Below are positions 4,181-57,034 of a DNA stretch of 62,120 nt, in pieces. A model generated the notes under the pieces. The model saw nothing but the letters and a program-made list of their open reading frames with translations. It was not told where the DNA came from and ran no database searches. How positions within the stretch are numbered: the stretch's first letter is position 1; each line of letters starts with the position of its first letter. Source of the stretch: an uncultured Clostridia bacterium (lineage in GTDB: Bacteria > Bacillota > Clostridia > Christensenellales > Borkfalkiaceae); NCBI GenBank assembly GCA_947589555.1, contig CANQAZ010000001.1, forward strand, positions 1 through 62,120. The letters are read 5' to 3'. The translations under genes and the position numbers were made by a program.

Positions 4181-4208
4181 TTTTGCATAGTATTATGCGT
4201 GACATAAT
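4181..4208 (+). repeat. Motif copy O1: TTTTGCATAGTATTATGCGTGACATAAT
   Basis: Starts 10 nt after the purB stop and lies upstream of the terminator at 4219. The 23-nt core is identical to O2. It contains the overlapping palindromes GCATA-GTAT-TATGC and ATTATG-N5-CATAAT. Confidence 0.9.
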
Positions 4209-14805: not shown

Positions 14806-14833
14806 TTTTACATAGTATTATGCGTGACATAAT
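14806..14833 (+). repeat. Motif copy O2: TTTTACATAGTATTATGCGTGACATAAT
   Basis: Starts 4 nt after the flavoprotein stop and ends 22 nt upstream of the -35 of the next operon. The 23-nt core is identical to O1. Confidence 0.9.
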
Positions 14834-32022: not shown

Positions 32023-33849
32023 ATGAGTTACTTTTACCATCCGCTGAAACGGGAGTGCAAAAGTTTGACCGGCGCGGTCCCGCGGGGCAGTGGGTTGACC
32101 TTTCATATTTTTCGGAGGGAAAGCGGAGAAGCGGACTTCTCCGCTCAACTTTGCAGTCTCGTGATTTTTGAGGACGGAAAGCACGAGACCGTTTTTCCGA
32201 TGAAAAAAACGGAGGACGGGTTTGCGATCACGCTGAAACTCCATCAAACCGGCCTCTATTTTTATTATTTTCGGCTCGACCGCGTCTGCCTCGGATGCGG
32301 AAAGGGACGGAAAGGGGAGTTGACGGAACAGCCCCAATGCTGGCAACTGACCGTCTATGACGAGGACTACGAAACGCCCGAATGGTTCAAGGGCGGCATC
32401 ATGTACCAAATTTTCCCCGACCGCTTTTTCCGCGCGGGGAACAATTCGGTAAAACCCTACCAGATCCTCCGCGGAGATTGGGGCGGACTCCCTTCGTTCC
32501 GCCCGAATGAGTTCGGAAAGGTGCTCAATAACGACTTTTTCGGCGGCGATTTGCAGGGTGTGCGCGAAAAACTCGACTATCTGAAAGCCCTGCACGTCAA
32601 CGCCATCTATTTCAATCCCGTGTTCGAGGCCTATTCCAACCACCGCTACGATACGGGCGATTACATGAAGATCGATCCGTTGCTCGGCACGAAGGAGGAT
32701 TTTTGCGCCCTCATCGGCGACGCAAAGGCGCGCGGCATCCGCGTGATCCTCGACGGCGTGTTCAACCACACGGGCGACGACAGCCGCTATTTCAACAAAT
32801 ACGGGCGGTACGACAGCGTGGGCGCCTACCAATCCGTGCAGTCGCCTTACAGCGAGTGGTATTGCTTCCGCCAATTCCCCGATACCTATGAAAGTTGGTG
32901 GGGAATCGAGACGTTGCCCGCGGTGAACGAATCCTCGGCCTCTTACCAGGATTTTATCTGCGGAGAAAACGGCGTCATCCAAACTTGGATCTCCTGCGGC
33001 GTGGGCGGCTACCGCCTCGACGTTGCGGACGAATTGCCCGATTTCTTCCTCGAAAAGGTGCGCCGCGCCGTGAAAGAGAGCGACGAGGACGCCTTGATCA
33101 TCGGCGAAGTGTGGGAGGACGCCTCCAATAAGGTCGCTTACGACGTGCGCAAGAAGTATTTGCAGGGGCGCGAACTCGACAGCGTGATGAACTATCCGCT
33201 GAAAAATGCCATCATCCGCTTTGTGCTCTCGGGCGATTGCGAAATGCTCCGCGAGACGGTCGCCATGCTCATCGACAATTATCCCAAACCGACCCTCGAC
33301 TGCCTCATGAACATTTTGGGAACGCACGACACGCCGCGCATTCTGACCGTCCTTGCGGGAAAATGGTGCGCGACGAAGGAAGAGATGGCGGCGACGAAAT
33401 TGAGCGGCGAGGAACGCGCGCGCGCCAAACAAAAGGTAAAAATGGCGGCGACCTTGCAGTTTACTTTGCCGGGCGTGCCTTGCATCTACTACGGCGACGA
33501 GATCGCGATGGAAGGTTTTCAGGATCCGTTCTGCCGCGGCTGTTACGATTGGGCGCATCCCGACGAGGAATTGCGCGCGTTTTACGAAAAACTCGCAACG
33601 ATCCGCACCGAGGTATTCGGCGACATTTTGCGGGACGGCGAATATCGGGAAATTTTTGCGGCGCAAGGCTGTATCGTTTATGAGCGCCGTAAAAACGGGC
33701 GGTCCATGTTGGTTTACGCCAACAATTCCGCCGCGGACCATATTTTACGGGGCGAGGGAAAGTGGAAGGAGCATTTGACGGGGCAAACCTTTGACGGCGG
33801 AATGACGATCCCGAAATATTCGTACGGAATTCTCTCGAAAATCGAATAG
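32023..33849 (+). CDS. GH13 alpha-amylase-family enzyme (neopullulanase / cyclomaltodextrinase / debranching-type)
   Basis: Conserved regions DGVFNHTG, GGYRLDVADEL, IIGEVWED and LGTHDTPR, plus an N-terminal accessory domain. It is the last gene of the glg operon. Confidence 0.85.
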   Translation: MSYFYHPLKRECKSLTGAVPRGSGLTFHIFRRESGEADFSAQLCSLVIFEDGKHETVFPMKKTEDGFAITLKLHQTGLYFYYFRLDRVCLGCGKGRKGELTEQPQCWQLTVYDEDYETPEWFKGGIMYQIFPDRFFRAGNNSVKPYQILRGDWGGLPSFRPNEFGKVLNNDFFGGDLQGVREKLDYLKALHVNAIYFNPVFEAYSNHRYDTGDYMKIDPLLGTKEDFCALIGDAKARGIRVILDGVFNHTGDDSRYFNKYGRYDSVGAYQSVQSPYSEWYCFRQFPDTYESWWGIETLPAVNESSASYQDFICGENGVIQTWISCGVGGYRLDVADELPDFFLEKVRRAVKESDEDALIIGEVWEDASNKVAYDVRKKYLQGRELDSVMNYPLKNAIIRFVLSGDCEMLRETVAMLIDNYPKPTLDCLMNILGTHDTPRILTVLAGKWCATKEEMAATKLSGEERARAKQKVKMAATLQFTLPGVPCIYYGDEIAMEGFQDPFCRGCYDWAHPDEELRAFYEKLATIRTEVFGDILRDGEYREIFAAQGCIVYERRKNGRSMLVYANNSAADHILRGEGKWKEHLTGQTFDGGMTIPKYSYGILSKIE

Positions 33850-33883
33850 TATGCGTGGCATAATATACTATGTGTGACATAAT
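33845..33883 (+). repeat. Motif copy O3 (tandem, two overlapping partial units): AATAGTATGCGTGGCATAAT-ATACTATGTGTGACATAAT
   Basis: Overlaps the TAG stop (33847-33849) of the GH13 gene and lies upstream of the terminator at 33904. Each unit matches the 3' 15 nt of O1 with one mismatch. Confidence 0.85.
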
Positions 33884-33903
33884 GCGCAGAAAGATGATGG
33901 TGG

Positions 33904-33946
33904 CGGCGCGGCTCCGGAAAGTGAAGGTCCGCGCCGTGTTTTTTTT
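33904..33946 (+). terminator. Rho-independent terminator of the glycogen operon
   Basis: CGGCGCGG...CCGCGCCG stem followed by a T8 run. Confidence 0.75.
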
Positions 33947-34071
33947 GAAAAACGGAAAAATGACCCGCAAAAACAGAAAAAAGATCGATGGACGAATGGG
34001 AAAATCGAAAAGCGGCGAAAATTGGACGCGAAATTTTTTGCGTGAAAAAACAGAAAATTTGCGGGCGGATG

Positions 34072-34098
34072 GTTGCGCAAAAAATTTTTTTGCGCAAC
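34072..34098. repeat. Near-perfect 27-nt palindrome GTTGCGC-A6-T7-GCGCAAC
   Basis: Read directly. It lies in an A-rich 350-nt noncoding stretch carrying several GCGCAAAAA / TTTTTGCG-like words. Confidence 0.8.
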
Positions 34099-34175
34099 AG
34101 AAAAAATGTGCGAATTCGTAAAAAAACGCGCAAATCAATGGATCGAGATATCTATTCAGGCCTTTTTTGCCCCTT

Positions 34176-34210
34176 ACTATTCGTAAAAGCGGCGTTTTGC
34201 GAATAGTTTT
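34176..34210 (+). terminator. Hairpin ACTATTCG...CGAATAGT plus TTTT (second terminator-like element in the same gap)
   Basis: The 8-bp outer arms, with inner AAAAGC/GCGTTTT pairing, are followed by TTTT. This implies a possible short transcript between 33947 and 34210. Confidence 0.45.
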
Positions 34211-34269
34211 GGGTGTCTTGGGCGCGCGTTTTGCCTCACCCCCATAGGGCTTGGATGCCGCTCCAAACA

Positions 34270-34299
34270 TTGACAACGGCCCTTTCGGCGTGCTATAAT
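34270..34299 (+). promoter_or_regulatory. Promoter TTGACA-N18-TGcTATAAT, 7 nt before the recombinase ATG (leaderless-type)
   Basis: TTGACA at 34270-34275, an extended -10 TGCTATAAT at 34291-34299 and the ATG at 34307. The track start at 34298 lies inside the -10 box. Confidence 0.6.
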
Positions 34300-34306
34300 G
34301 GTCGCG

Positions 34307-35368
34307 ATGAAACGCAATTCCAACTATTATCAGGAAAGAAATCTCGACAATCTGGACCGTATCGACAGGCTCCTCGAAGAACTCCCCTACTTCTGCGAGG
34401 ATTTTTTGCGCGGCGTGGAAACGCGTACGAGTACCCTCACTCGCCTCAATTATGTGTACGATTTGCGCATCTTTTTCGATTTCCTCGTCAAGAAACGCTT
34501 CCGCGGCAAACAGGTGCGCGAACTCACCCTTGAAGATATCGAGCAAGTGACCGATACCGACATCGAAATTTTCCTCTCCTATCTCTCCAATTATCAATTC
34601 GGCGACAAACGCCTCTCCTGCGACGAGCGCGCCAAAGCCCGCAAACTCTCCACTGTGCGCTCGATGTTCAAGTATTTCTTCAACAAAGGCCTCATCGAAG
34701 TCAACAATACCGCGAAAGTTTCTACGCCCAAACTCCACGATAAGGAGATCGTCCGCCTGGAAAGCGACGAGGTCTCCTCTCTGCTCGATACCGCTGAGGA
34801 AGGCAACGGCCTCTCCCCCCATGCGGCCGGCTATCACGACAAGACCAAAATACGCGATACCGCCATTTTGACCCTCTTTTTGGGCACGGGCATCCGTATT
34901 TCCGAACTCGTCGGTCTCAACGATGAAAGCATCGATTTTTCCACCAATTCCTTTGTCGTGACCCGCAAGGGCGGAAATCACGCTATTTTGTACTTTTCGG
35001 AGGAGGTCGGCGACGCCCTCGCCGCCTATCTCGCCCAAAAACAGGACGATCCCCGCGTGCCCGAGGACGAGCACGCCCTCTTTTTATCCCTCCAATATCG
35101 CCGTATTACCGTGCGCGCCGTCGAAAATCTCGTCAAAAAGTACGCGCGCATCGTCTCCCCTCTCAAAAAAATCACGCCGCATAAACTCCGCTCCACCTAC
35201 GGCACCGCCCTTTACCGCGAAACGGGCGACATCTACATCGTGGCCGACGTCTTGGGACACAGGGACGTGAATACGACGCGCAAACACTATGCCGCCATCA
35301 CAGAGGACCACCGCAAGGCCGTTGCGGACAAGGTAAAACTCCATAAACCGGGAGACGGCGGCGAATGA
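34307..35368 (+). CDS. Tyrosine recombinase (XerC/XerD-like, phage-integrase family)
   Basis: N-terminal SAM-like domain. The catalytic residues appear in GTGIRISELVGL (Arg), HKLRSTYGT (HxxR) and LGHRDVNTTRKHY (His...Tyr). ATGA overlap with hflX. Confidence 0.85.
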   Translation: MKRNSNYYQERNLDNLDRIDRLLEELPYFCEDFLRGVETRTSTLTRLNYVYDLRIFFDFLVKKRFRGKQVRELTLEDIEQVTDTDIEIFLSYLSNYQFGDKRLSCDERAKARKLSTVRSMFKYFFNKGLIEVNNTAKVSTPKLHDKEIVRLESDEVSSLLDTAEEGNGLSPHAAGYHDKTKIRDTAILTLFLGTGIRISELVGLNDESIDFSTNSFVVTRKGGNHAILYFSEEVGDALAAYLAQKQDDPRVPEDEHALFLSLQYRRITVRAVENLVKKYARIVSPLKKITPHKLRSTYGTALYRETGDIYIVADVLGHRDVNTTRKHYAAITEDHRKAVADKVKLHKPGDGGE

Positions 35369-36588
35369 ACGAAAAAAGCGAAAAGCGGGAGATCGTCTAC
35401 GTCATCCAGCCCGTCTACGGGCAGTCTGACCGCGCCGTTCACGACGAGGCCGTCTCCCTCATCGAAAGCGCGGGCGCAAGTTACGGCGGCACGATCTATC
35501 AAAACATCCGCGAAGTCAATCCCGCGACCTATGTGGGCGAGGGAAAACTGCGGGAATTGAAGGAGCGTCTCGACGGACTTGACGACGTGACCGTGCTCTT
35601 CAACGGGGAACTCTCCCCTTCCCAGACGCTGAACATCTCCGCCGCGTTGGACGGCAGAAAGGTCATCGACCGCACGACCCTCATCCTCGATATCTTTGCC
35701 CTGCGCGCCGCGAGCAGCGAAGGAAAGTTGCAGGTAGAACTCGCCCAACTCAACTATCTTTATCCCCGCCTCAAAGGCAAGGGCGGAGCCCTTTCCCGCC
35801 TCGGGGGCGGCATCGGGACGCGCGGCCCCGGAGAAAGCCAACTCGAAACGGACAGGCGGCACATCCGCGCGCGCATCCGCTCGCTCGAAAAGAAACTCGC
35901 CGAAACGGAAAAACGGCGCTCCTTACAGACGGAACGCCGCAAAAAAGAGCGGATCAAGACGGTCGCGCTCGTCGGATACACCAATACGGGCAAATCCACT
36001 CTGCTGAATGCCGTGACGGGCGCCGACGTTTTGACGAAGGACGCCCTCTTTGCGACCCTCGACCCCACCGCGCGTGCCTTTGAAATAGAGGGCGTGCCCT
36101 TTCTCATGGTGGATACCGTCGGATTTTTGCAGGCTCTGCCCCACCATCTCATCGAAGCATTCAAATCCACCCTCGAAAGCGCGTTGAATTGCGACCTCGC
36201 CCTTATCGTGTGCGATGCGGCGGGAGAATACGAGTTGCAACTCAAAACGACGCTGGATACCTTGCAGGAGATGGGCTTTACGGCGCCCTACCTCGTCGTC
36301 ATGAACAAGTGCGACGTCGCCCCGAACGGCCGCTTCCCCCGCGGCACCGTGTGCATTTCCGCCAAAACGGGCCGTGGTCTCGACGAACTGAAAAGGCGCA
36401 TTTTCGAGGCGTTCAGCGATAAATTTGTGCGGGCCGAACTCTTTGTCCCCTATGCGTGCATGGGAGAGTACGGCGCGCTCCGCTCCCGCCTCGTCGAACA
36501 GACGGTGGAATACACCGAAGGCGGCGCGAAGATCTCCGCCATCATCCCTGCGATCTATCGGGAAAATTTCCTTAAATTTATCAAATGA
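35365..36588 (+). CDS. hflX: GTPase HflX
   Basis: HflX N-terminal domain (GEGKLRELKERL, LDIFALRAASSEGKLQVELAQL) and G-domain (VGYTNTGKSTLLN, DTVGF, NKCD). Confidence 0.93.
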   Translation: MNEKSEKREIVYVIQPVYGQSDRAVHDEAVSLIESAGASYGGTIYQNIREVNPATYVGEGKLRELKERLDGLDDVTVLFNGELSPSQTLNISAALDGRKVIDRTTLILDIFALRAASSEGKLQVELAQLNYLYPRLKGKGGALSRLGGGIGTRGPGESQLETDRRHIRARIRSLEKKLAETEKRRSLQTERRKKERIKTVALVGYTNTGKSTLLNAVTGADVLTKDALFATLDPTARAFEIEGVPFLMVDTVGFLQALPHHLIEAFKSTLESALNCDLALIVCDAAGEYELQLKTTLDTLQEMGFTAPYLVVMNKCDVAPNGRFPRGTVCISAKTGRGLDELKRRIFEAFSDKFVRAELFVPYACMGEYGALRSRLVEQTVEYTEGGAKISAIIPAIYRENFLKFIK

Positions 36589-36615
36589 GCGTTGCCGTGC
36601 GGCAACGCCCTTTTT

Positions 36616-36804
36616 TCAGTCCTTTTCGTGATAATCCTTCGGGTCGGTATAGATCTTGTCGATCTTGATTGTGGCGAAATCCTTGATATCGAGACATTTG
36701 CCGCAATTATCGCAGATCTTATTGGGATCGAGGTCGCAGACCTCGCATTCGAGACAGCCGTCGCATTCCTTCGTCTCATCGAGGATGCACATTCTTACTT
36801 CCAT
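36616..36804 (-). CDS. Small Cys-rich protein (62 aa, 8 Cys), divergent from lexA
   Basis: MEVRMCILDETKECDGCLECEVCDLDPNKICDNCGKCLDIKDF... has the pattern C-x7-CxxCxxCxxC-x7-CxxCxxC. Start is the ATG at 36804, 6 nt after a TATAAT; an alternative ATG is at 36792. The track start at 36876 is upstream of the promoter. Confidence 0.6.
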   Translation of the reverse strand: MEVRMCILDETKECDGCLECEVCDLDPNKICDNCGKCLDIKDFATIKIDKIYTDPKDYHEKD

Positions 36805-36810
36805 ATCTTT

Positions 36811-36839
36811 ATTATACCCCCTTTTTCCCCGCTTGACAA
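36811..36839 (-). promoter_or_regulatory. Promoter TTGTCA-N17-TATAAT for the Cys-rich ORF (leaderless-type)
   Basis: On the minus strand TTGTCA is at 36839-36834 and TATAAT at 36816-36811, with the ATG top coordinate at 36804. Confidence 0.55.
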
Positions 36840-36869
36840 GAAAAATTTTGCAAATTGCGGAAAAATATT

Positions 36870-36883
36870 GAAACAAATGTTTG
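36870..36883. promoter_or_regulatory. Putative LexA (Cheo-type) box GAAACAAATGTTTG
   Basis: The AAC-N4-GTT core is preserved and AAAC-AAAT-GTTT is a palindrome. It overlaps the -35 of the lexA promoter, the classic autoregulation geometry. Confidence 0.6.
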
Positions 36884-36909
36884 CAATGTTCGGCGGAATG
36901 TGCTATAAT
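36881..36909 (+). promoter_or_regulatory. lexA promoter TTGCAA-N17-TGcTATAAT
   Basis: TTGCAA at 36881-36886 and TATAAT at 36904-36909 with an upstream TG. GAGGTGG RBS before the ATG at 36927. Confidence 0.65.
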
Positions 36910-36926
36910 GGCAATCGAGGTGGATC

Positions 36927-37535
36927 ATGTTGAAACAGGATAAACTCAACGCAGTGCTCGGCTACATCAACCGCTACATCGAGGAAAACGGCTTTCCGCC
37001 CACCGTGCGGGAGATCTGCGCCGAACTCGGCATCAAGTCCACCGCGACGGTGTACGACTACATCAACCGCTTGCGGGACATGGGATTTTTGGATAAGGCC
37101 GAAAAGAAGAAGCGCGCCGTCGCCGTAAAAGGGAACGGAAATTTGTTCCGCGCTCCCCTCCTCGGCACGGTCAATGCGGGCGCGCCCATTTTGGCTGTGG
37201 AGGATAACGAAGGCTTCTACCCCCTGCCCTCCGCAGAATTCCGCGGGGACGACCTCTTTTTGTTGCGCGTACACGGCGAAAGCATGATCGAAGCGGGCAT
37301 CTTTGACGGCGATAAGATCGTCGTAAAGAGGCAACCGAACGCCGAGAACGGCGAGATCGTCGTTGCGATGTTCGACGAGGGCTACGGCGAGGGCGCAACG
37401 GTCAAGCGCTTTTACAAGCGGGACGGGAAGGTGGTGTTGCACCCCGAAAATTCCGCGATGGCGGATATCGTTCCCGAAGATCCCGACGGCGTGACCATCT
37501 TGGGGAAGGTCATCGGGCTGATCCGCAGTATTTGA
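36927..37535 (+). CDS. lexA: LexA repressor
   Basis: The winged-helix N-terminus (GFPPTVREICAELGIKSTATVYDYI), the A-V-A-V-K-G region, and the S24 peptidase motifs GESMIEAGI and VKRF (Ser/Lys dyad). Confidence 0.95.
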   Translation: MLKQDKLNAVLGYINRYIEENGFPPTVREICAELGIKSTATVYDYINRLRDMGFLDKAEKKKRAVAVKGNGNLFRAPLLGTVNAGAPILAVEDNEGFYPLPSAEFRGDDLFLLRVHGESMIEAGIFDGDKIVVKRQPNAENGEIVVAMFDEGYGEGATVKRFYKRDGKVVLHPENSAMADIVPEDPDGVTILGKVIGLIRSI

Positions 37536-37560
37536 CCTTTTTTCGGTAGATTTTGAATGG

Positions 37561-37589
37561 AAAAACGCGGCATTTTGCCGCGTTTTTTT
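37561..37589. terminator. Bidirectional rho-independent terminator at the lexA / rluB convergence point
   Basis: AAAAA-CGCGGCA-TTT-TGCCGCG-TTTTTTT. It overlaps the rluB stop codon. Confidence 0.85.
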
Positions 37590-38292
37590 ATAGATTTTTG
37601 AGGTAAAAGATCTCTTCCGGCGTCAGTTTGCGGCAAGCGCCGCGGTCGAGCCCCGTAAGGCTCAGGTCCCCCACGCGGATGCGCTTCAAGAAATCGACGT
37701 GCAGGCCGACTGCTTCGAACATTTTGCGGATCTCCCTGTTTTTGCCCTCGGTGAGCGTGACGTGAAGTTTTGTAAATTTTTTATCCGTCTCCGTTACGAC
37801 TACCTTGCACTTTTTGGTGACGACGCCCGGCTCGATCTCCACTCCCGCGCGGAGGCGGTTGAGTTGTACGGGCGTTATCCCGCCCTCCACGCGCACGAGA
37901 TACATTTTGGGGATCTCGCTCTGCGGCGCGGTGAGGCGGTAGGCCAAATCGCCGTCGTTTGTGAGGATGAGCAGACCCTCGGTGGCATAATCGAGGCGGC
38001 CGACGGGCACCACTCTCCCCGCGCCGGCGGGCAAAAGGTCCATCACCGTCTTTCTGCCCTTATCGTCGGAGACGGTGCAAACGTACCCCTTCGGTTTGTT
38101 CAGAAGATAGTATTCGTACTTGACTTTGTGGGAGAGAAGTTTGCCGTCCACTGCGACGGCGTCTCCGTCCTCCACTTCGTCGCCCGGTTTTGCGGGCCTG
38201 CCGTTGAGGGTCACCCGCCCCGCCGAGATGATCTCATCCGCCCCTCTACGGGACGCGACGCCTTGCTCCGCAAGAAATTTGTTGATGCGCAT
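37588..38292 (-). CDS. rluB: Pseudouridine synthase, RsuA/RluB family (S4 domain + catalytic domain)
   Basis: MRINKFLAEQGVASRRGADEIISAGRVTLNG is the S4 domain, and VGRLDYATEGLLILTNDG is the catalytic Asp motif. Confidence 0.9.
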   Translation of the reverse strand: MRINKFLAEQGVASRRGADEIISAGRVTLNGRPAKPGDEVEDGDAVAVDGKLLSHKVKYEYYLLNKPKGYVCTVSDDKGRKTVMDLLPAGAGRVVPVGRLDYATEGLLILTNDGDLAYRLTAPQSEIPKMYLVRVEGGITPVQLNRLRAGVEIEPGVVTKKCKVVVTETDKKFTKLHVTLTEGKNREIRKMFEAVGLHVDFLKRIRVGDLSLTGLDRGACRKLTPEEIFYLKNL

Positions 38293-38319
38293 GTTGCCGC
38301 TCCGTTTGTTTGCGTTCCC

Positions 38320-39333
38320 TTAAATCATAAACAAATTCTGCGAAAAAAGCAACTCCTTTTTGAGGTATATTTTCATTTCGCCCGCAACTTCGCCCGCATG
38401 TTCGGGGCGGGGGAAATACAATTCTACTTCCCGCGTGACGTTTTCCGCCTCCTCCTCGGTGAGCGGATAGGAAAAACCATAGCGCACGGCGAAGCCTTCG
38501 ATCTTTTCGGACGGCGCGCACAGCGTGTGCATCGAATAGGCGGAAAAGGCGGCGTTGAGGAGATCGGCCGTGCGTTCGTACATCTGCGGGCAGTCCAAAA
38601 CGACGGAGACGAGTTTCATGCCGCCGCGCTCCGCGCTCGTCACGAGGCACCGCCCCGCCGAGGTCGTGAATCCCGTTTTGACGCCGATGGCCCCCTCGTA
38701 GGTGCGCAACATCTTGTTTTTGTTGGCCCAGCCCCGCGGCTCGTAAAATTTGCAGGAGACGATCTCGCGGAAGGTCTCGTTCTCCATCGCGTAGGCGGCG
38801 ACAAATGCGAGGTCGCGCGCCGTGGTGTAGTGACGCTTATCGGGCAGACCGTGGGGATTGACGAAATGGCTGTGCGTCGCGCCGAGGCGGACCGCTTTTT
38901 CATTCATTTTTTGGGCGAAGGCTTCGATACTGCCGCTGTGGTGCAGGGCGAGGGCGACGGCGCAATCGTTTCCGGAGCGCAACATGAGTCCGTAGAGGAG
39001 TTCGTGCACGGTATAGATCTCGCCCGCTTTGAGGTAGACACTCGAACCCTCGACCCCCTCCGCCTCCTTCGGGATCGCGAATGTTTCGTCGAGCGCACAA
39101 TCGTCGATCACGAGGATGGCGGTGAGGATCTTGGTCGTGCTTGCCATAGGAAGGTCGGTTTCGGCGTTGCATTCGTGCAAAATGCGCTTCGATGACACTT
39201 CGACGACGCATTCCGCCTTAGCCTCCCCCGCCGAAGCCGCGGCCGCCTTTGGGCTCACCCTTTCCGATACGGGCACGAGCGGCGCAAGGACGAGCGCCAG
39301 CGCGCACAGCGCGGCCGCCCGTTTAATCCTCAT
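38320..39333 (-). CDS. dacB: D-alanyl-D-alanine carboxypeptidase (S11 family, DacB-like)
   Basis: Signal peptide, with the motifs SxxK (ASTTKILT), SxN (SGND) and KTG (KTGFT). Confidence 0.88.
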   Translation of the reverse strand: MRIKRAAALCALALVLAPLVPVSERVSPKAAAASAGEAKAECVVEVSSKRILHECNAETDLPMASTTKILTAILVIDDCALDETFAIPKEAEGVEGSSVYLKAGEIYTVHELLYGLMLRSGNDCAVALALHHSGSIEAFAQKMNEKAVRLGATHSHFVNPHGLPDKRHYTTARDLAFVAAYAMENETFREIVSCKFYEPRGWANKNKMLRTYEGAIGVKTGFTTSAGRCLVTSAERGGMKLVSVVLDCPQMYERTADLLNAAFSAYSMHTLCAPSEKIEGFAVRYGFSYPLTEEEAENVTREVELYFPRPEHAGEVAGEMKIYLKKELLFSQNLFMI

Positions 39334-39706
39334 TTTCTTCCGCCTTTTTCAGGACTTTTCCGACGATTTCACCCGCTTTTTCGATGAGCCCGTCGATGGG
39401 ATCGTCGGTGATGCGCACGACGCGGCAATCCACGCCGTCATCGATGAGAAAGCCCGCGGGCTTGATGTTGACGACGGTGCCCGCCCCGCCCGCAAAGGGA
39501 AAACATTCGTCCTCCTTGATCGCCTTCACCTCGCCGTATTCGCCGCCTCCGGAGAGATAGCCCATCGTCACTTTGGTGAACGGGATGATCTGCGCGCCGC
39601 TCGCGGAATACACCGGCTTGCCGATGACCGTGTTGACGTCGATAAGCCCCGTCAGTTGCTCGGCTGTCTTTTCCATGATGCCGTCGATTTTTTTTCTTTT
39701 ATCCAT
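39323..39706 (-). CDS. ytfJ: Sporulation protein YtfJ (GerW family)
   Basis: MDKRKKIDGIMEKTAEQLTGLIDVNTVIGKPVYSASGAQIIPFTKVTMGYLSGGGEYG... Start is the ATG at 39706; the track ORF extends upstream spuriously. Confidence 0.8.
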   Translation of the reverse strand: MDKRKKIDGIMEKTAEQLTGLIDVNTVIGKPVYSASGAQIIPFTKVTMGYLSGGGEYGEVKAIKEDECFPFAGGAGTVVNIKPAGFLIDDGVDCRVVRITDDPIDGLIEKAGEIVGKVLKKAEENED

Positions 39707-40233
39707 TTCAGAAATGCCTCCAATGCTTTTTTGATGAGCGCCAACGTCAAAATGAATCCGTTGAACACCGTTGCCGCCTGTACCGAAAGTTTGAGCGCCC
39801 TCTCCTCCGTGAGCAAAACGGTATTTTTGAGGGAAACGAAGGGATAGCGCGTCTGTATGACGGAAAAAGCCGCCCCGCCCGCCGCTTGCAACGCCGCCGC
39901 GAGCATGACGCCGTACAGTGATTGCGCGCCGCTGACTTCGATGATTTGGTGGAAGCGCCAAAGTTGAAATCCCTTTGTGATCTCAAATTTTTTGCGGGTA
40001 TCCGCCATGCTCGAATAGGGAAGAAAGACGGCTTTTTTATCGGTGAGATGGAGGGCGATACCGCCGCGCAGGATCTCCCCGTAGCCGCCGTACACTTTCA
40101 GCCGCCGGTACAGACAGAGAGCGAACCACGCTTTGTTCTCCGCCGCGTCCACATACCCGTCCACGTAGACGAATACAGGAAAAAAGAAGAACAATCCTCC
40201 GAAAAAAAGGGAGTAAACGAAAAGTTCGCCCAT
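39652..40233 (-). CDS. DUF2953-type membrane protein (YtfI-like, sporulation-associated)
   Basis: MGELFVYSLFFGGLFFFFPVFVYVDGYVD...LKVYGGYGEI... It sits directly upstream of ytfJ, as ytfI does in Bacilli. The family assignment is from memory only. Confidence 0.55.
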   Translation of the reverse strand: MGELFVYSLFFGGLFFFFPVFVYVDGYVDAAENKAWFALCLYRRLKVYGGYGEILRGGIALHLTDKKAVFLPYSSMADTRKKFEITKGFQLWRFHQIIEVSGAQSLYGVMLAAALQAAGGAAFSVIQTRYPFVSLKNTVLLTEERALKLSVQAATVFNGFILTLALIKKALEAFLKWIKEKKSTASWKRQPSN

Positions 40234-40280
40234 ATCCGTAATATGGGCGAATGGGAAAAAATTATTTATTTTTCGGAAAA

Positions 40281-41039
40281 TCAGGAAATTTTTACGAGGT
40301 CGTCGTCGAGGCCCTGTAAAAAGTCGGGCAATTCGTAACCGCCCTCCGTGATAGGAGTATCCGCAGGGAGGGTCTTGGGCTTTTCCTCTTCTCCTTTGGG
40401 GGCTTCCTCCGGCGCAGTTCCCTCCTTTGCCACCTCTTCGCCCGCCGGGATGTTCTCCTCCCCGTCGGTCCCGCCGTATTCTTTGCGGGCATAGAGATAA
40501 CTGTCGCGATCGGTCTCTTCCGCCGCGATCGTCGCCATGAGCGTATCGTAATCGGGCAGTTCGGCGAGGGATTCCAGTTTGAAGCGCTTCAAAAATTCGT
40601 CCGTCGTCGCAAAGAGTACGGGGCGGCCGACGGCGTCCTTCCTGCCGCATGGATAGATGAGTTTGAGTTCGAGGAGCATGTTGACCGCATAATCGCTGTT
40701 CACGCCGCGCAGAAGTTCGATCTCCGAGCGGGTGATGGGCTGTTTGTAGGCGATGATGGCGGCACATTCGAGCACGGTGCGGGTGAGTTCCTTTTCCCGG
40801 ATGGGATTGAGCACGGCCGCGACTTCCTCTTTATACTGCGGATTGGAGGCGAGTTGGGCCTTCTTGTTGAATTCGAGGAGTTGGATGCCTCCTTCCTCCC
40901 CGTATTTTTTGCGCAACTCGCGGAGCGCGGCGTTCACTTCGCGCTCGGTGACGTTCAATTTGTCGGCGATGTCCGAAACGGCGACCGCCTTCCCGGACGC
41001 AAACAGAACGGATTCAATTATATTCGTCAATTTGTCCAA
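40281..41039 (-). CDS. scpB: Segregation and condensation protein B
   Basis: (M)DKLTNIIESVLFASGKAVAVSDIADKL...ECAAIIAYKQPITRSEIELLRGVNSDY...GRPVLFATTDEFLKRF. A TTG start at 41039 lies 6 nt after GGAGGAG. Acidic C-terminal extension. Confidence 0.85.
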   Translation of the reverse strand: MDKLTNIIESVLFASGKAVAVSDIADKLNVTEREVNAALRELRKKYGEEGGIQLLEFNKKAQLASNPQYKEEVAAVLNPIREKELTRTVLECAAIIAYKQPITRSEIELLRGVNSDYAVNMLLELKLIYPCGRKDAVGRPVLFATTDEFLKRFKLESLAELPDYDTLMATIAAEETDRDSYLYARKEYGGTDGEENIPAGEEVAKEGTAPEEAPKGEEEKPKTLPADTPITEGGYELPDFLQGLDDDLVKIS

Positions 41040-41805
41040 GAGGCTCCTCCCCGCCCTCCGGATTGAGGGCAATCGTAATGGCTCCGAATAATTCCGTTTG
41101 GGTCACCAGGAGATATTGGTGTTTCAGAAGTTCCAACAGCGCCTGGAAAGTCGTGATGATTTCCGATTTGGTGTAATCGTGGGTGAAAAGTTCTTCGAAT
41201 TGTACGCTTTTGGCCTCTTCGAGGCTTTCAAGGATGAAGGTGATCTTCTCCGCGACCGTATATTCGTCGCGCGGGATCTCCCGCATTTCCTGCGCGGCGA
41301 TCTCCTTATCGCGCTTGCGCAATAGATCGGTGAGCGCAGCGACAAGACCGTCGCTTGTCAGGTTGTCCAAAGAAAAGATGGTGCGCGTATCGCCCACGTA
41401 CTTATCGGGCTCCTTGAAGTAATACCCGATGGTTTCGAGTTCTTTCAGTTTTTTTGTCTCCTCTTTGATGAGGCGGTACTCTTCGAGGGCGCGGATGAGG
41501 CGGCTCTTATCGTCCTCGACCTCCTCGTCGATCTCGGGGTCCTCTTCGAGGTTGGGCACAAGGGCCTGCGCCTTGATCTTGATGATGGTCGCCGCAATGT
41601 TGAGATAATCGGTGATCTTGTCCACGTCGAGATAGGGAAGGCCCTGCATGTATTGGAGGAATTGCTCCGTGACCTGCGAAACGAAAATATCCTTGATCTC
41701 GATTTCTTCCCGGTTGATGAGATAGAGAAGAAGATCGAGCGGACCTTCGAAATTATTCAAAACGGTGGTGTAATCGACGTTCGATTCGAAATCTTCCCGT
41801 TTCAA
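41014..41805 (-). CDS. scpA: Segregation and condensation protein A
   Basis: (M)KREDFESNVDYTTVLNNFEGPLDLLLYLINREEIEIKDIFVSQVTEQF. A TTG start at 41805 lies 6 nt after GGAGGA and downstream of the promoter at 41836-41864. The track start at 41853 lies upstream of the -10 box of that promoter. Confidence 0.85.
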   Translation of the reverse strand: MKREDFESNVDYTTVLNNFEGPLDLLLYLINREEIEIKDIFVSQVTEQFLQYMQGLPYLDVDKITDYLNIAATIIKIKAQALVPNLEEDPEIDEEVEDDKSRLIRALEEYRLIKEETKKLKELETIGYYFKEPDKYVGDTRTIFSLDNLTSDGLVAALTDLLRKRDKEIAAQEMREIPRDEYTVAEKITFILESLEEAKSVQFEELFTHDYTKSEIITTFQALLELLKHQYLLVTQTELFGAITIALNPEGGEEPLGQIDEYN

Positions 41806-41835
41806 TGCTCTTCCTCCCGCGCGCGATACTGTTTC

Positions 41836-41864
41836 ATTATAGTGCAATTTCACAAAAAAGGCAA
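41836..41864 (-). promoter_or_regulatory. Promoter TTGCCT-N17-TATAAT of scpA-scpB
   Basis: On the minus strand TTGCCT is at 41864-41859 and TATAAT at 41841-41836. Confidence 0.55.
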
Positions 41865-41865
41865 G

Positions 41866-41897
41866 AAAAAAGCGGATATTTTGGGAAATTTCCGCTT
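41866..41897 (-). terminator. Rho-independent terminator after lysA
   Basis: On the minus strand: AAGCGGA-N14-TCCGCTT followed by TTTT. Confidence 0.7.
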
Positions 41898-41935
41898 ACT
41901 TTCTCAATATCTTGTGGTTTTGCGGCCATTTGGGG

Positions 41936-43261
41936 CTATTTGAGGCGGTCCGGGATGACGTCGTTGCGGACGAGATCCGCATAGGTCTGGGGTTTGATGA
42001 TATATTCCCCCTTTCCGTCCTTCACAAGCACTGCGGGCGGAATGAAATTGCGGTTGTAGTTGCTCGCCATCGAATAGTTGTAGGCGCCCGTCGTCAGAAC
42101 GGCAATGAGGTCGCCCGGATGCGCTTCGGGCAAATTCATGTCCACGCCGATGAGGTCACCGCTCTCGCAACATTTTCCCGCGAGCGACACGAGTTCGGTG
42201 CAGGGCTCCGCGGCGCGGTTTGCAAGGAGAGCCGTGTACTTGGATTGATAGAGACAATAGCGGGGATTATCGAACATCCCGCCGTCGATGGCCACGTATT
42301 TGCGCAGACCCGCGATCTCCTTCACCGCGCCCACCGTGTAAAGGGTGACACCCGCTTCGCCGACGATGGAGCGGCCGGGCTCGATGAGAATGCGGGGAAG
42401 GCGCAGGCCGTATTCGGCGCAATTTTGCTTGACGGCGGCGATGAGCGCCGAAAGATAGGTGCGGTAACCTTCGGGCGGGAGCATGGCGTCTCCCTCGGCG
42501 TACCAAACGCCGAATCCCCCGCCCATATTGAGTTCCGACGCCTCAAAACCGAGTTTTTGCTTGATTTTTGCGACGAAAGCGAGGTTTTTTTGAACGGCGA
42601 GCACAAAGGATTGCTTTTCGAAGATCTGCGAGCCGATGTGGCAGTGATACCCTTTGAGGCGCAGGTGTTTTTTGGAAAGAACGTATTTTGTGATGACTTC
42701 CGCCGCGCCGCTATCCACGGAGAAGCCGAATTTGGAATCGGGTTTTGCCGTCTGGACGTAGGCATGCGTGTGGGCCTCGACGCCCGGGTTGATGCGGATG
42801 AGCACCTCCTGCACCATACCGCGCTTGGCGGCCTCCTCTTCGATGAGGTCGGCCTCCGTGAAGGCGTCCACGACGATGGTCCCCACCTTACAATCGAGTG
42901 CGTAGGAAATTTCGCGCGGCAATTTGTTGTTGCCGTGCATGTAGATGTTTGCCGCGGGGAAATCGGCCTGCATCGCGGTGTACAACTCGCCGCCCGATAC
43001 GACGTCCACGCCGATCTGTTCCGATTTGGCGATGGCGTACATCGCCGTGCAGGAAAAGGCCTTTGAAGCGTACAGGACAAGCCCGTTGCCACCGTATTCT
43101 TCCTCGATGGTATCGCGGTAGACGCGCATCATCGTGCGGATATACTCTTCGTCGAACACGTAGAGCGGCGTTCCGAAGGTTTTGGCAAGGGTTACGCAGT
43201 CGGCGCCGCCGATTTCAAGATGGCCGAGGGAATTGATTTTCAAAGTTTTTCGGAAGTTCAT
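41936..43261 (-). CDS. lysA: Diaminopimelate decarboxylase
   Basis: 441 aa with GTPLYVFDE, YASKAF (PLP lysine region), GGGFG and the CESGD motif. Confidence 0.95.
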   Translation of the reverse strand: MNFRKTLKINSLGHLEIGGADCVTLAKTFGTPLYVFDEEYIRTMMRVYRDTIEEEYGGNGLVLYASKAFSCTAMYAIAKSEQIGVDVVSGGELYTAMQADFPAANIYMHGNNKLPREISYALDCKVGTIVVDAFTEADLIEEEAAKRGMVQEVLIRINPGVEAHTHAYVQTAKPDSKFGFSVDSGAAEVITKYVLSKKHLRLKGYHCHIGSQIFEKQSFVLAVQKNLAFVAKIKQKLGFEASELNMGGGFGVWYAEGDAMLPPEGYRTYLSALIAAVKQNCAEYGLRLPRILIEPGRSIVGEAGVTLYTVGAVKEIAGLRKYVAIDGGMFDNPRYCLYQSKYTALLANRAAEPCTELVSLAGKCCESGDLIGVDMNLPEAHPGDLIAVLTTGAYNYSMASNYNRNFIPPAVLVKDGKGEYIIKPQTYADLVRNDVIPDRLK

Positions 43262-43267
43262 GCCTTG

Positions 43268-43297
43268 ATTATATCACTCTTTTTCCGTTTCGGTCAA
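43268..43297 (-). promoter_or_regulatory. Promoter TTGACC-N18-TATAAT placed 6 nt before the lysA ATG (leaderless-type)
   Basis: On the minus strand TTGACC is at 43297-43292 and TATAAT at 43273-43268, with the ATG top coordinate at 43261. No SD sequence. Confidence 0.6.
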
Positions 43298-43338
43298 GAA
43301 AAAAGGCATAATTACCGCAAAAAACGATAATTATGCCT
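43298..43338 (-). terminator. Strong rho-independent terminator after the dacF-like gene (11-bp perfect stem AGGCATAATTA/TAATTATGCCT)
   Basis: On the minus strand: AGGCATAATTA-N13-TAATTATGCCT followed by TTTTTT. The 5' arm overlaps motif copy O4. Confidence 0.85.
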
Positions 43339-43357
43339 GGCATAATACTATGCAAAA
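43330..43357 (-). repeat. Motif copy O4 (minus strand): TTTTGCATAGTATTATGCCAGGCATAAT
   Basis: Starts 5 nt after the dacF-like stop at 43362. It has 3 mismatches to the 23-nt O1 core, all within the N5 spacer of the ATTATG/CATAAT palindrome. Confidence 0.9.
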
Positions 43358-50071: not shown

Positions 50072-51770
50072 AGAGCCCACCGATAAGCGCGAAAAGCGCC
50101 TCTTCGCTCACGCCGAAGCGCTTGGCGAGCGATTTGGGCTGTCCGTGCGGGATGAATTCGTCGCGGTAGCCGAGCGAATAGACCTCTTTCCCGCTGTTGC
50201 GGTAAAACCGCGCGACGGCGTCCCCCAGTCCACCGATGAGGGCATTGTCCTCCACCGTGATGACGTACTTTTGCGGAAGTCCGCCAAGAAGCGCCTCGTC
50301 GAGCGGTTTCAAAAAACGGGCGTTGACGATGCCGACGTCCTTCCCGCTCCCGCGCAGTGCAGTGCGCACTCTTTCGGCGATGCAGATGCAACGCTCCCCC
50401 GCCGCAATGATCATTATGTCAGACGTAGTACTATGTAAAATTTCCATTTTTCCGATTTCAAGGGGCGAAATCGGGCCATCCAACCCTGCGCGGGGGTATC
50501 GGATGGCGAGCGGGCCGTCAAACGAGGCCCCTGCGCGGAGAATGGCGCGGAATTCCCCCACATTCTTCGGAATGGCAACGGTGAGGTTCGGGATAAAGGA
50601 AAGATAGGAAAGATCGAATATGCCCTGGTGCGTTTGGCCGTCCGGGCCCGCGATGCCCGCCCGGTCCACGCAAAACGTAACGGGCAAATTCTGCGCGCAG
50701 ACGTCGTGGATGATTTCATCGAAGGCGCGCTGTAAAAAAGTGGAATAAATGGCGTAGTACGGGCGCATGCCCTGCGTCGCCATTCCCGCGCAGAGTACGG
50801 AAGCGTGCTCCTCGCAGATGCCGACGTCGAAGGCGCGGCGCGGGAAGCGGCGGAAAAACTCGCGCAGACCCAAACTGTCCGTCATCGCCGCAGTGACGGC
50901 GACGATGCGCGGGTCGCGCTCCGCAAGGGCGCACAATTCCTCGCCGAGGGCCGCGGAATACTCGCGCTCCCCCTCTCCCGACTTGGGGCCCACGCCGTGC
51001 GTTGCCTCTGGCTCGCTCTCGCAGAAGGGATAGCCCTGCCCCTTTTTCGTGACGACGTGCAATAACACGCAAGAATCGCGGAGCGCCTTTTTGGCCTCTT
51101 CGAGCGCGGGAAGGAGTTCGGAAAGGTCATTTCCGTTGTAAACGCCCATGTATTTGAGCCCGTATTGCTCAAAAAGGGCGATATTTTCGGGACGCATGCC
51201 CGTTTTGAGTTCGCTCAGCACGTCGTGCGTGCCGCCGACGGTGGGAGAAATAGACAGGCCGTTGTCGTTCACGACGATGAGGATGCGCGTGTTCAGAATG
51301 TGCAGACTGTTGAGCGCCTCGAAAATAAGCCCGTTGTTGAACGAACCGTCGCCGATGAGCGCGATGACTTCGAAGGTTTCGCCCTTCAAATCGCGCGCCG
51401 CGGCAATGCCGAGCGCCGCGGAGACCGAAGTGCCCGCGTGGCCCGTATCATAGCAATCGTAATCGCTCTCCTCCCGCTTAGGAAAGCCCGAGAGCCCCCC
51501 CTCCTGCCGCAAGGTGCGGAATCGGTCGGCCCGCCCCGAAAGCAATTTGTGGGTGTAGCACTGATGGCCCACGTCGAAAACGATCTTGTCGCGGGGAAAA
51601 TCGAAAACTTTGTGAAGCGCAACCGTCAATTCCACCGTACCGAGATTGGACGAAAGATGCCCGCCGCAGACGGAAACGGTATCGAATATTTCCGTGCGGA
51701 GTTCCTCGCAGATGTGATTCAGTTGGGGTACGGAGGCCGATTTGAGTTCGGCGTCGGAAATGTTTCTCAT
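50058..51770 (-). CDS. dxs: 1-deoxy-D-xylulose-5-phosphate synthase
   Basis: MRNISDAELKS...GGHLSSNLGTVELTVALH...DVGHQCYTHKLLSGR...GDGSFNNG (TPP motif). Start is the ATG at 51770. Confidence 0.95.
   Translation of the reverse strand: MRNISDAELKSASVPQLNHICEELRTEIFDTVSVCGGHLSSNLGTVELTVALHKVFDFPRDKIVFDVGHQCYTHKLLSGRADRFRTLRQEGGLSGFPKREESDYDCYDTGHAGTSVSAALGIAAARDLKGETFEVIALIGDGSFNNGLIFEALNSLHILNTRILIVVNDNGLSISPTVGGTHDVLSELKTGMRPENIALFEQYGLKYMGVYNGNDLSELLPALEEAKKALRDSCVLLHVVTKKGQGYPFCESEPEATHGVGPKSGEGEREYSAALGEELCALAERDPRIVAVTAAMTDSLGLREFFRRFPRRAFDVGICEEHASVLCAGMATQGMRPYYAIYSTFLQRAFDEIIHDVCAQNLPVTFCVDRAGIAGPDGQTHQGIFDLSYLSFIPNLTVAIPKNVGEFRAILRAGASFDGPLAIRYPRAGLDGPISPLEIGKMEILHSTTSDIMIIAAGERCICIAERVRTALRGSGKDVGIVNARFLKPLDEALLGGLPQKYVITVEDNALIGGLGDAVARFYRNSGKEVYSLGYRDEFIPHGQPKSLAKRFGVSEEALFALIGGLYARG
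50413..50440 (-). repeat. Motif copy O5 (minus strand, inside dxs): TTTTACATAGTACTACGTCTGACATAAT
   Basis: 4 mismatches to the 23-nt O1 core. It encodes ILHSTTSDIM of Dxs. Confidence 0.8.
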
Positions 51771-55805: not shown

Positions 55806-57034
55806 CAGAAGAAAACCCCCGTGGAACAGATGAGAAGGAGCAACGTCAGAAAATAGAGAAAAGCGATGCACAAAATTCCCGCCAAAAAATAGCCGCTGTC
55901 CTTTGCAAGGCGGGATAAAAACCCCGGGATCTTCCCCCCGACGGGCTCGGTGGCCGCCGCGGAGAGCCGCAAAAAGAGTTGAAAGGCCGCCATCAGGAGC
56001 ACGGGCCGCAGGACGGCGGCAAAGAGAAGAAAGACGGCGAAGGAGCCGAGCGCATTTTTGATGAGCGCGCTCCCTGCGACGACAAGTTCCACCCCGCCAG
56101 ACAAAAATCCGCCCACGAGAGGTACCGATCCCGAAATTACATACTTTGCGGCGCGGAGCGAAAGCCCGTCGTACTGCGCCGAAGCGATCCCTTGCACGGT
56201 GAGAAAAAGACTCATGAGGGCAAGCGTCAGGCCGATGAGCCATTTGCCGACGCTCTTGAAGAGTTCGCCGAGCCGCTCCGTGCGCACATCGTCGGTCAGA
56301 TTTCCGACAAATGCGAGCAATATGACGACGACGGCCGACGGCAGAACGACGGAAGTAAAAAGGCGGGTGACCGTACTGCTGAAAAAGGCGACCGCAGGGC
56401 GGAATACTCCCGCGGAGACCGCCCCGCCGCTCGCCGCCATGAGGGTCATCAAAATCGGATAAACTATTTCCATCTGCCGTTGCATGGCGTCCATCGCCCG
56501 AAATCCGCTCTCCAAAACTCCGATGAGACATGCAAGCACCGTCGCCCCCACCGAAATATAGCCGACAAAGTGGATTATGTCTGACATAGTACTATCTATA
56601 AAGCCACTTTTCGCAGAGTTTAGGATCCCGCAGAGCAAAGCGACGGCCAAAATGATGGCAAATGCCGGGATCATCGCCTTTCCGTCCTCCCAAACGAGGG
56701 CAAGAACGGCTTCGGTCAGAGAGCCGTATTCGAGCGAGGCGTCTCCCGTGATCAATTTTTTCAATTGGTCTTTGACGCTCGTCCCGCGGAATTCGGAAAG
56801 GGAATTGAGATAGTTTTGCAGTTCCTCCGTATCGAGCCCCTGCAATAATTCGTCGATGTTGTTTTCGAGTTCCTTCATCGCGCCGTTTTCTTCCGCAAGC
56901 GGAGCGGTCGGTACGGCATTCGCGCACAACAGCAAAACGAGCGCAAATAGTCCCGCAAGAAGGCAGATTGCCCTCTTTATTTTGTTTTTTCGGGGCACAA
57001 TGGGCCTGCGCCCGTAGACGAGTCGCGCGTTCAT
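55805..57034 (-). CDS. spoIIIAE: Stage III sporulation protein AE
   Basis: Signal/TM segment followed by a polytopic membrane protein (LMTLMAASGGAVSAGVFRPAV...). ATGA overlap with spoIIIAD. Start is the ATG at 57034. Confidence 0.85.
   Translation of the reverse strand: MNARLVYGRRPIVPRKNKIKRAICLLAGLFALVLLLCANAVPTAPLAEENGAMKELENNIDELLQGLDTEELQNYLNSLSEFRGTSVKDQLKKLITGDASLEYGSLTEAVLALVWEDGKAMIPAFAIILAVALLCGILNSAKSGFIDSTMSDIIHFVGYISVGATVLACLIGVLESGFRAMDAMQRQMEIVYPILMTLMAASGGAVSAGVFRPAVAFFSSTVTRLFTSVVLPSAVVVILLAFVGNLTDDVRTERLGELFKSVGKWLIGLTLALMSLFLTVQGIASAQYDGLSLRAAKYVISGSVPLVGGFLSGGVELVVAGSALIKNALGSFAVFLLFAAVLRPVLLMAAFQLFLRLSAAATEPVGGKIPGFLSRLAKDSGYFLAGILCIAFLYFLTLLLLICSTGVFF
56574..56601 (-). 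repeat. Motif copy O6 (minus strand, inside spoIIIAE): TTATAGATAGTACTATGTCAGACATAAT
   Basis: 5 mismatches to the 23-nt O1 core. It encodes FIDSTMSDII of SpoIIIAE and contains the palindrome ATAGTACTAT. Confidence 0.75.

Follow-up and report, generated by a model that had tools for sequence, protein, structure and literature searches.

A dif-like site, a XerS-like recombinase gene and six copies of a motif

We analysed a 62,120-nucleotide stretch of DNA (hereafter the window) from an uncultured Clostridia bacterium of the Borkfalkiaceae (assembly GCA_947589555.1, contig CANQAZ010000001.1, positions 1 to 62,120), in which a repeated DNA motif changes orientation near a gene for a tyrosine recombinase. 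The recombinase gene lies at 34298-35368 on the plus strand and encodes 356 aa with Pfam Phage_integrase and SAM-like N domains; the best NCBIfam match of the protein is XerS (NF003462), at 195 bits and below the cutoff of 267, and on its sequence we class it as XerS-like and not as a XerS equivalog. About 90 bp upstream of the gene, at 34176-34207, is a candidate dif site, a 13-6-13 inverted repeat (ACTATTCGTAAAA-GCGGCG-TTTTGCGAATAGT) that occurs once in the window. The recombinase gene has its own promoter, a perfect TTGACA-18-TATAAT at 34270-34299. Because this promoter ends at the annotated ATG, the transcript may lack a leader, or translation may in fact start at a codon downstream.

Six copies of the motif TTTTRCATAGTAYTAYGnnnGRCATAAT, here called O1 to O6, are present in the window. 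The 11-mer ACTATGTAAAA matched five times with at most 1 mismatch (0.34 matches expected) and the 23-mer CATAGTATTATGCGTGACATAAT three times with at most 3 mismatches (0 expected); the remaining copies were recovered by relaxed searches. O1 (4181-4208, plus strand; TTTTGCATAGTATTATGCGTGACATAAT) is a polar copy that starts 10 nt past the purB stop codon and is followed by an intrinsic terminator and then dinB. O2 (14806-14833, plus strand), also polar, lies 4 nt past the stop codon of a flavin adenine dinucleotide (FAD) gene of the aminoacetone-oxidase family and upstream of an aroH-cmk fusion gene, with an orthologous site in at least five other genomes. O3 (33845-33883) lacks the polar extension CATAGTA and consists of two palindromic core units in tandem, TATGCGTGGCATA and TATGTGTGACATA; situated about 300 bp left of the dif-like site, it overlaps the stop codon of a gene of the alpha-amylase family. 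The polar copy O4 (43330-43357, minus strand) lies 5 nt past the stop codon of a D-Ala-D-Ala carboxypeptidase gene, and its 3' part forms the 5' arm of the terminator of that gene; the lysA promoter and gene come next. O5 (50413-50440, minus strand) and O6 (56574-56601, minus strand; 1 mismatch) are polar copies within coding sequences, O5 in dxs, where it is read in frame as HSTTSDII, and O6 in spoIIIAE. Orthologous sites inside the coding sequence were found in other genomes for O5 (loci L009 and L096 of our set) and in at least six other genomes for O6. The original prediction had assigned O1-O3 to the plus strand and O4-O6 to the minus strand, which holds for O1, O2 and O4-O6 and does not hold for O3, a copy with no polarity.

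The dif-like site lies where gene orientation converges

For comparison we used 80 loci encoding relatives of the recombinase (78-93% identity), all from uncultured Clostridia labelled Gallimonas, Christensenellaceae or similar. In 78 of the 80 the dif-like site was kept, 100-500 bp ahead of the recombinase gene; its arms were conserved and its 6-bp centre varied. In nearly all of these loci every gene left of the site was on the plus strand, and to its right came xerS (plus), hflX (plus), a small open reading frame (ORF; minus), lexA (plus) and then a long minus-strand run. The corresponding genes in the window are hflX (35365-36588, plus), a small Cys-rich ORF (36616-36876, minus) and lexA (36927-37535, plus).

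A switch at about 37.56 kb had been proposed for the window, where lexA on the plus strand meets a minus-strand rluB-like gene. Our own gene calls, with NCBIfam and Pfam annotation, confirmed this convergence and its bidirectional intrinsic terminator (37557-37591), but the switch itself was not borne out at that point. Since the dif-like site is so widely conserved and gene orientation converges there, we place the orientation flip at this site, and the replichore boundary is most probably at or beside it (34.19 kb). It follows that the plus-strand genes to its right (35365-37535), hflX and lexA, are probably on the lagging strand. The statement that spoVG is the sole minus-strand gene from 1.7 to 37.5 kb was correct as to the strand of spoVG, but the Cys-rich ORF is also on the minus strand.

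We also compared coding-strand GC skew at four-fold degenerate codon sites (GC4 skew), using pooled values only because the skew of a single locus (SD 0.107) was too noisy to call a direction of replication. Pooled GC4 skew was -0.23 for xerS, hflX and lexA, -0.26 for other opposite-strand islands and -0.09 to -0.16 for neighbouring majority-direction genes. The lagging-like value for xerS, hflX and lexA gives weak additional backing to a terminus at dif; plain whole-strand GC skew showed no clear switch within the window. With a conserved dif-like site, a single XerS-like gene and converging gene orientation in about 80 relatives, the suggestion that this is a terminus-like region is upheld, and the window very probably spans a chromosome dimer-resolution locus and hence the replication terminus. 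No DnaA signature of an origin locus was found in any of the relative loci fetched. A cluster of three perfect DnaA boxes in one of them (L004, 1435-1612) was considered as oriC and rejected, as it sits upstream of spoIIGA-sigE-sigG; the same locus has two full motif copies, 43 bp apart, after a ylmC/ymxH-like gene further downstream.

The spacer between O3 and the dif-like site (33884-34175) is rich in A/T-tracts and in repeated palindromes of the TTTTTTGCGCAA type, for example GTTGCGCAAAAAA/TTTTTTGCGCAAC at 34072-34098. These could be bent DNA or accessory binding sites beside dif.

A composite motif conserved at orthologous positions

We then examined the distribution of the motif by scanning one genome per GTDB species with two patterns, the second of them looser; at least 119 stretches matched the first and at least 120 the second. 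More than 230 distinct sites were found in related metagenome-assembled genomes (MAGs). The matches came nearly all from one clade of rabbit, chicken, mouse and human gut MAGs, carrying the labels Ca. Gallimonas, Ca. Borkfalkia/Borkfalkiaceae or Christensenellaceae, and the few chance matches in unrelated phyla are what the looser second pattern would predict. The motif appears to be undescribed: Rfam has no family for it, and the literature on this clade was searched by taxon name only.

The consensus is aATTT-n6-TTTG CATAGTA CTATG TCAGA CATAAT a. Its core is the palindrome (A)CTATG-YSWGR-CATAG/A(T), and most copies have one extra CATAG half-site, giving a second, overlapping palindrome (CATAGT|ACTATG), together with a phased T-tract on one side only, conserved 5-15 nt upstream of the core. 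Because the extra half-site and the T-tract lie on one side, such a copy is polar. Extension-less units numbered 124, about 70 of them being the site beside dif, and about 20 copies were two-sided. At up to 4 mismatches the density in relatives was about 1 per 22-25 kb, compared with six in the 62-kb window; overall spacing was about one copy per 10-25 kb, genome-wide on many contigs.

Copies lie at gene 3' ends or in frame inside coding sequences (dxs, spoIIIAE, miaA and the FAD-protein gene), where the reading is HSTMSDII in miaA and spoIIIAE and the O5 octapeptide in dxs. Between genera, orthologous copies keep the motif perfectly while their flanks diverge, and protein length is unchanged at the sites within genes (miaA and dxs, compared by eye with Bacillus subtilis sequences). 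Kept in place amid diverged flanks, and in frame without a change in length, the sequence must be under strong selection. The genes that flank it have no common function (purB, dxs, miaA, recG, thyA, ylmC, thrS and others).

Four genomes share an array of five units, mixed in orientation, ahead of the dgt-dnaG operon. The array lies past the terminator of an SDR gene and ahead of a dGTPase-like HD gene and dnaG, and has 3-5 units (L007, 7397-7517; L038, 5606-5726; L078, 5510-5590; L100, 7552-7651). A comparable 3-unit array follows recG in L057. As candidates for a binding protein we considered the products encoded beside the arrays (the SDR and dGTPase-like HD proteins, RecG and a zinc-ribbon membrane protein), none of which was convincing. 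An XRE-type helix-turn-helix gene of 94-99 aa that lies between dif and the recombinase gene was likewise not convincing; it is present in only 4 of the 80 relatives (L184, L195, L198 and L199).

The motif extension, TTTTGC-ATAGT, resembles the right arm of the dif-like site (TTTTGCGAATAGT) minus 2 bp, and on the left replichore the two are oriented alike; the palindromic unit, too, has at its ends the ACTAT/ATAGT found on the outside of the dif arms. The likeness may be chance or a shared recognition element. We treat it as no more than a lead, since a gap of 2 bp would disrupt recombinase-arm geometry.

Motif polarity switches at dif

Across the 80 loci, motif copies right of dif were almost all on the minus strand (55 minus, 1 plus), and those more than 4 kb left of it were mostly on the plus strand (7 plus, 1 minus). 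In 73 of 80 relatives the copy nearest dif on the left, at 200-400 bp, was a symmetric, extension-less unit, single or double. At +2.4 kb, in the gap between hflX and the small ORF, at least 12 genomes have a minus-strand copy, which confines the flip to the interval from -0.2 to +2.4 kb of dif. Further sites on dif-bearing contigs, up to 129 kb away, followed the rule of plus on the left and minus on the right in 23 of 24 cases, and pairs of motifs on other contigs usually shared one orientation over 10-110 kb. In all, about 92-97% of polar copies point towards dif, with the extension on the origin-proximal side. The earlier proposal that a polar motif changes orientation at a terminus is borne out, at a different point from the one first named.

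About 8% of polar copies were reversed, some of them conserved between genomes. Perfect reversed copies lie antisense to the gene run iorAB-paaK-ACT|lysA (L222, 2964-2985; L254, 7001-7022) and to the run secA-prfB|tsaD (L240, 5036-5057; L304, 4344-4365). The pooled GC4 skew of gene runs opposed by reversed copies was about -0.14, which is leading-strand-like, so the prfB|tsaD and ACT|lysA copies are true reversals and the polarity of the motif is a statistical tendency, not an absolute rule. Upstream of lysA, the copy is sense in the window (O4) and antisense in L222 and L254.

Replichore orientation or ends of transcription units

We tentatively propose, with somewhat less than even confidence, that the motif is a replichore-orientation signal at a xerS-dif terminus, applying the logic of FtsK-orienting polar sequences (KOPS) to a long protein-binding site. 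A protein, probably a dimer, would recognise the palindromic core on duplex DNA. The origin-proximal half-site and the T-tract would give each site a direction towards dif, so that a system bound to DNA or moving along it could learn from the motif in which direction to find dif, and the polarity flip in the window would be the replichore boundary at dif. What the data show is the build of the motif, its conservation, its distribution and skew, and the switch at dif; the binding of a sequence-specific protein and the orienting function we infer.

The main alternative, and a serious one, is that the sites are barriers or insulators at the ends of transcription units. A protein bound to the core would then act as a polar roadblock, with RNA polymerase stalling on the T-tract, where the active site of a stalled polymerase would be, and afterwards being released; motif orientation would simply follow the genes, and the flip at about 34-37 kb would be a flip of gene orientation only. 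We consider this explanation rather unlikely. The caution of the original prediction that replication and transcription polarity are confounded still stands: with more than 90% of genes co-oriented, the two directions are almost completely confounded and were separated in part only. Of the 99 one-sided copies with tandem genes around them in all the loci fetched, 91 had the direction of the genes, and copies in coding sequences were sense except for one or two antisense sites (L241/L243, apparently orthologous). Intergenic copies were enriched at 3' ends (45 convergent, 6 divergent), often beginning 0-25 nt past the stop codon of the gene they face, and at convergent junctions the copy was nearer the stop codon of the faced gene in 19 of 26 cases (p = 0.03). 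Such an association with 3' ends is not directly predicted by an orientation signal, which would need promoter avoidance and coding constraint in addition. In favour of the barrier are also the position of the T-tract upstream of the core, the presence of an intrinsic terminator within 100 nt at 45% of sites, and the array between a terminator and the dgt-dnaG operon, where an insulator would be expected.

Three further points count against an orientation signal on their own. Among the candidates considered, no motif-binding protein was identified; such a model gives no clear role to the dgt-dnaG array of five units or to the two-sided copies; and we know of no orientation signal of 27 bp, KOPS and the SpoIIIE recognition sequences (SRS) being 7-8-mers read directly by FtsK or SpoIIIE.

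Several observations favour the replichore or speak against a transcription barrier. At junctions between the majority direction and islands of one or two genes, one-sided copies followed the majority in 13-18 distinct sites and never faced the island gene alone (p ~1e-4 to 1e-5). Within a two-gene lagging-strand island in L015, a perfect copy lies antisense to the genes and matches the surrounding direction, and perfect antisense copies in operons or gene runs also occur in L222/L254, L240/L304 and L277. The antisense share in tandem contexts (8/99) equals the expected share of lagging-strand genes. Two-sided copies, which a transcription model predicts at convergent junctions, were not enriched there (p = 0.38). 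Copies in dxs, miaA, the FAD-protein gene and spoIIIAE would truncate transcripts unless binding were conditional, and a barrier would be redundant at the 27% of sites where a normal terminator follows; as stops for transcription, neither copies within genes nor those ahead of a normal terminator would have much point.

Evidence that the motif acts as duplex DNA

We also asked in which form the motif is likely to be read. An Rfam scan of the window gave tRNA only and no match at the motif. The commonest form of the motif has weak hairpin potential (-1.3 kcal/mol, z = -0.4), and a C-A mismatch in its stem is the majority state. Intrinsic terminators were found upstream of the motif at 19% of sites and downstream at 27%. 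An RNA element or intrinsic terminator was rejected on the Rfam and folding results, the lack of covariation, the terminators on either side and the antisense copies. Arrays, moreover, hold units of both orientations, and we conclude that the motif acts as duplex DNA and not as RNA or single strand.

None of the promoter types considered fits the motif (sigma-A spacing, and the sigma-E/F/G/K, sigma-54 and sigma-H consensus). The distance from GCATA to CATAAT is 13 bp, compared with 17-18 for sigma-A; in several loci a ribosome-binding site begins 2 nt past the motif; and xerS and lysA have strong consensus promoters of their own downstream of motif copies. The motif was also rejected as a LexA SOS box, since lexA carries a canonical-type box, GAAACAAATGTTTG, and no O motif.

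A selfish repeat similar to repetitive extragenic palindromic (REP) sequences, spread by a Y1 transposase (RAYT or IS200-type) and biased by insertion into the lagging-strand template, would account for a short palindrome with a conserved 5' tag that is mostly extragenic at 3' ends and oriented with replication. In L045 an IS200/IS605-type tnpA (3199-3606) is inserted beside the recG-associated motif pair; it has end hairpins of its own that bear no relation to the motif, and no motif copies flank it. With the weak hairpin potential of the single strand, and with sites kept at orthologous positions across genera, including in-frame copies that leave protein length unchanged, we rejected a REP/RAYT repeat, and this origin is exceedingly improbable.

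Another possibility is that the motif serves as operator for some abundant protein, a global regulator or a nucleoid-associated protein, such as a GntR-type winged-helix dimer, and that its polarity has no function of its own, the extension and T-tract being by-products of where sites persist, for instance beside terminator U-tracts. The core fits the pattern nGT-N3-ACn and is a palindrome typical of dimeric helix-turn-helix operators; an operator would tolerate reversed and two-sided copies, and it suits the arrays in the dgt-dnaG upstream region and the many extension-less units, including those beside dif. We nevertheless consider it improbable. The sites avoid divergent, promoter-bearing regions and often lie between convergent genes or within coding sequences, places that offer nothing to regulate; the genes beside them have no function in common, and the extension is conserved in sequence and spacing with the strong skew described above.

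Implications for chromosome polarity

To our knowledge, polar replichore-oriented DNA signals are known in few forms (the 8-mer KOPS and SRS, Chi, and Ter in enterobacteria and a few Bacillus species). A long, conserved, protein-sized motif that flips at dif would offer a handle on chromosome polarity in uncultured gut Clostridia. A bolder version, which we hold to be possible though doubtful, is that the motif and its binding protein form an undescribed chromosome-polarity system in a family of spore-forming gut Clostridia; its long composite sites, one every 10-25 kb, would point along the replichores to a XerS-type dif, with a symmetric terminal site 200-300 bp from dif, and it would either guide a translocase or SMC-type machine or act as a genome-wide polar barrier against polymerases that travel in the wrong direction. 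If the polar-barrier form were true, the Tus and RTP systems would gain a third relative that had evolved independently, and if instead the sites stop RNA polymerase at the ends of transcription units, they would exemplify roadblock-type termination in bacteria, which is also unusual. The motif is specific enough for pull-down or DNA affinity purification sequencing (DAP-seq), so its reader protein can be sought directly. Independently of the function of the motif, the xerS-dif module is a practical marker of the terminus for MAGs of the Gallimonas/Borkfalkia clade.

Other genes in the window

At the left end of the window groES and groEL occupy 1-1573 on the minus strand; a search for identical GroES proteins, meant to extend the window, led to contigs of less than 1 kb only. 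Two gene fusions lie further in, one joining ispH (LytB) to S1-domain repeats (16718-19030, 770 aa) and the other, next to O2, joining an AroH-type chorismate mutase to cytidylate kinase (14910-15914, 334 aa). The small Cys-rich gene encodes a protein of about 70-86 aa that has no Pfam family and is conserved divergently from lexA, beside the SOS box; the copies in the window, L040 and L091 end in ...YTDPKDYHE, unlike that in L267. The gene is a candidate for SOS regulation and might encode, for instance, a division inhibitor. The genes scpB and scpA, for the SMC kleisin and accessory subunits, lie at 40281-41805, 6-7.6 kb from the dif-like site, and have sporulation genes as neighbours (ytfJ, a dacB-like gene, spoIVB and the spoIIIA operon).

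Comparison with known systems

The motif shares with the REP sequences and bacterial interspersed mosaic elements (BIME) of enterobacteria a short palindromic form, placement after gene 3' ends and between convergent genes, and occasional arrays. REP sequences differ in being GC-rich stable hairpins, associated with RAYT, neither orthologous across genera nor in frame, and the motif is the opposite in these respects. Eukaryotic RNA polymerase I terminators (the TTF-I Sal box and Reb1) combine a T-rich release element with a roadblock and are also polar fork barriers. By analogy, the motif may be compared with them as a T-rich element upstream of a protein roadblock site, at the 3' ends of transcription units and dependent on orientation. 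They belong to another domain of life and another polymerase, and many copies of the motif lie in coding sequences or ahead of ordinary terminators.

Replication fork traps offer another parallel, and the original prediction had read the locus as a possible Ter-type layout with a resemblance to the RTP Ter core. Under that reading, a terminator protein on the core and auxiliary half-site would block forks that pass dif. RTP is a winged-helix protein of about 14.5 kDa whose gene typically lies beside a Ter pair. Among the roughly 50 window proteins, covering 62 kb of genome, neither an RTP family match nor a Tus-like protein was found with Pfam or NCBIfam. Like RTP-Ter and Tus-Ter, the motif is a polar site in the range of 23-30 bp with a strong and a weaker part, here 27 bp with a strong palindrome and a weaker half-site; it forms opposed groups around the terminus, with a symmetric or double unit adjoining dif, and has conserved intragenic and intergenic positions, like the ter sites of Escherichia coli. 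The weaker half-site is origin-proximal, which would be the permissive side in RTP logic, a resemblance by analogy only.

The sequence likeness is at chance level. Against the B. subtilis RTP Ter consensus KMACTAANWNNWCTATGTACYAAATNTTC (PMC3317982), motif sites had 9-11 mismatches over 25 specified positions, a score shared by hundreds of window positions (21 with 9, 74 with 10 and 278 with 11 mismatches), and the best window matches (7 mismatches) were not at motif copies. The best window matches to the Tus Ter consensus AGNATGTTGTAAYKAA had 3-4 mismatches, and none was at a motif copy. The Ter-type layout also fits the data badly. The sites are genome-wide, at about 1 per 22 kb, and not limited to the terminus half; the reversed copies, including sites conserved in two genomes on leading-like runs, would block normal forks; and two-sided copies and five-unit arrays of mixed orientation are present. 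Fork traps have been described only in Tus-bearing gamma-proteobacteria and a few Bacillus species, and most bacteria appear to be without one (PMC10331603). The motif probably does not work as a replication fork trap, and an array of Ter-like barriers is a very improbable explanation of its layout.

The terminus module itself is closest to XerS/difSL of streptococci and lactococci, in which a single recombinase gene is linked to a dif site at the terminus and the minimal difSL of 31 bp has two inverted repeats of different sizes (PMC2965235). The window similarly has a single recombinase gene adjoining a dif-like site at a convergence of gene orientation, and the arms of its site, TTCGnAAAA...TTTTnnGAA, have a difSL flavour. 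It differs in that the recombinase scores below the XerS cutoff, the site is a nearly symmetric 13-6-13 repeat, and the host is a spore-forming member of the Clostridia in the Gallimonas/Borkfalkia group.

In its distribution the motif most resembles KOPS of E. coli FtsK and SRS of B. subtilis SpoIIIE. Like them, it is dispersed through the genome, at about 1 per 10-25 kb, inside and outside genes, with a statistical strand skew of about 90%, replichores that point to dif and a switch at dif. KOPS and SRS are read by the gamma domain of the translocase, and the motif differs from these short sequences in being a 27-bp composite of a palindromic core, an extra half-site and a T-tract, in its preference for gene 3' ends and in forming arrays and two-sided copies. 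This composite build implies a dedicated sequence-specific binding protein.

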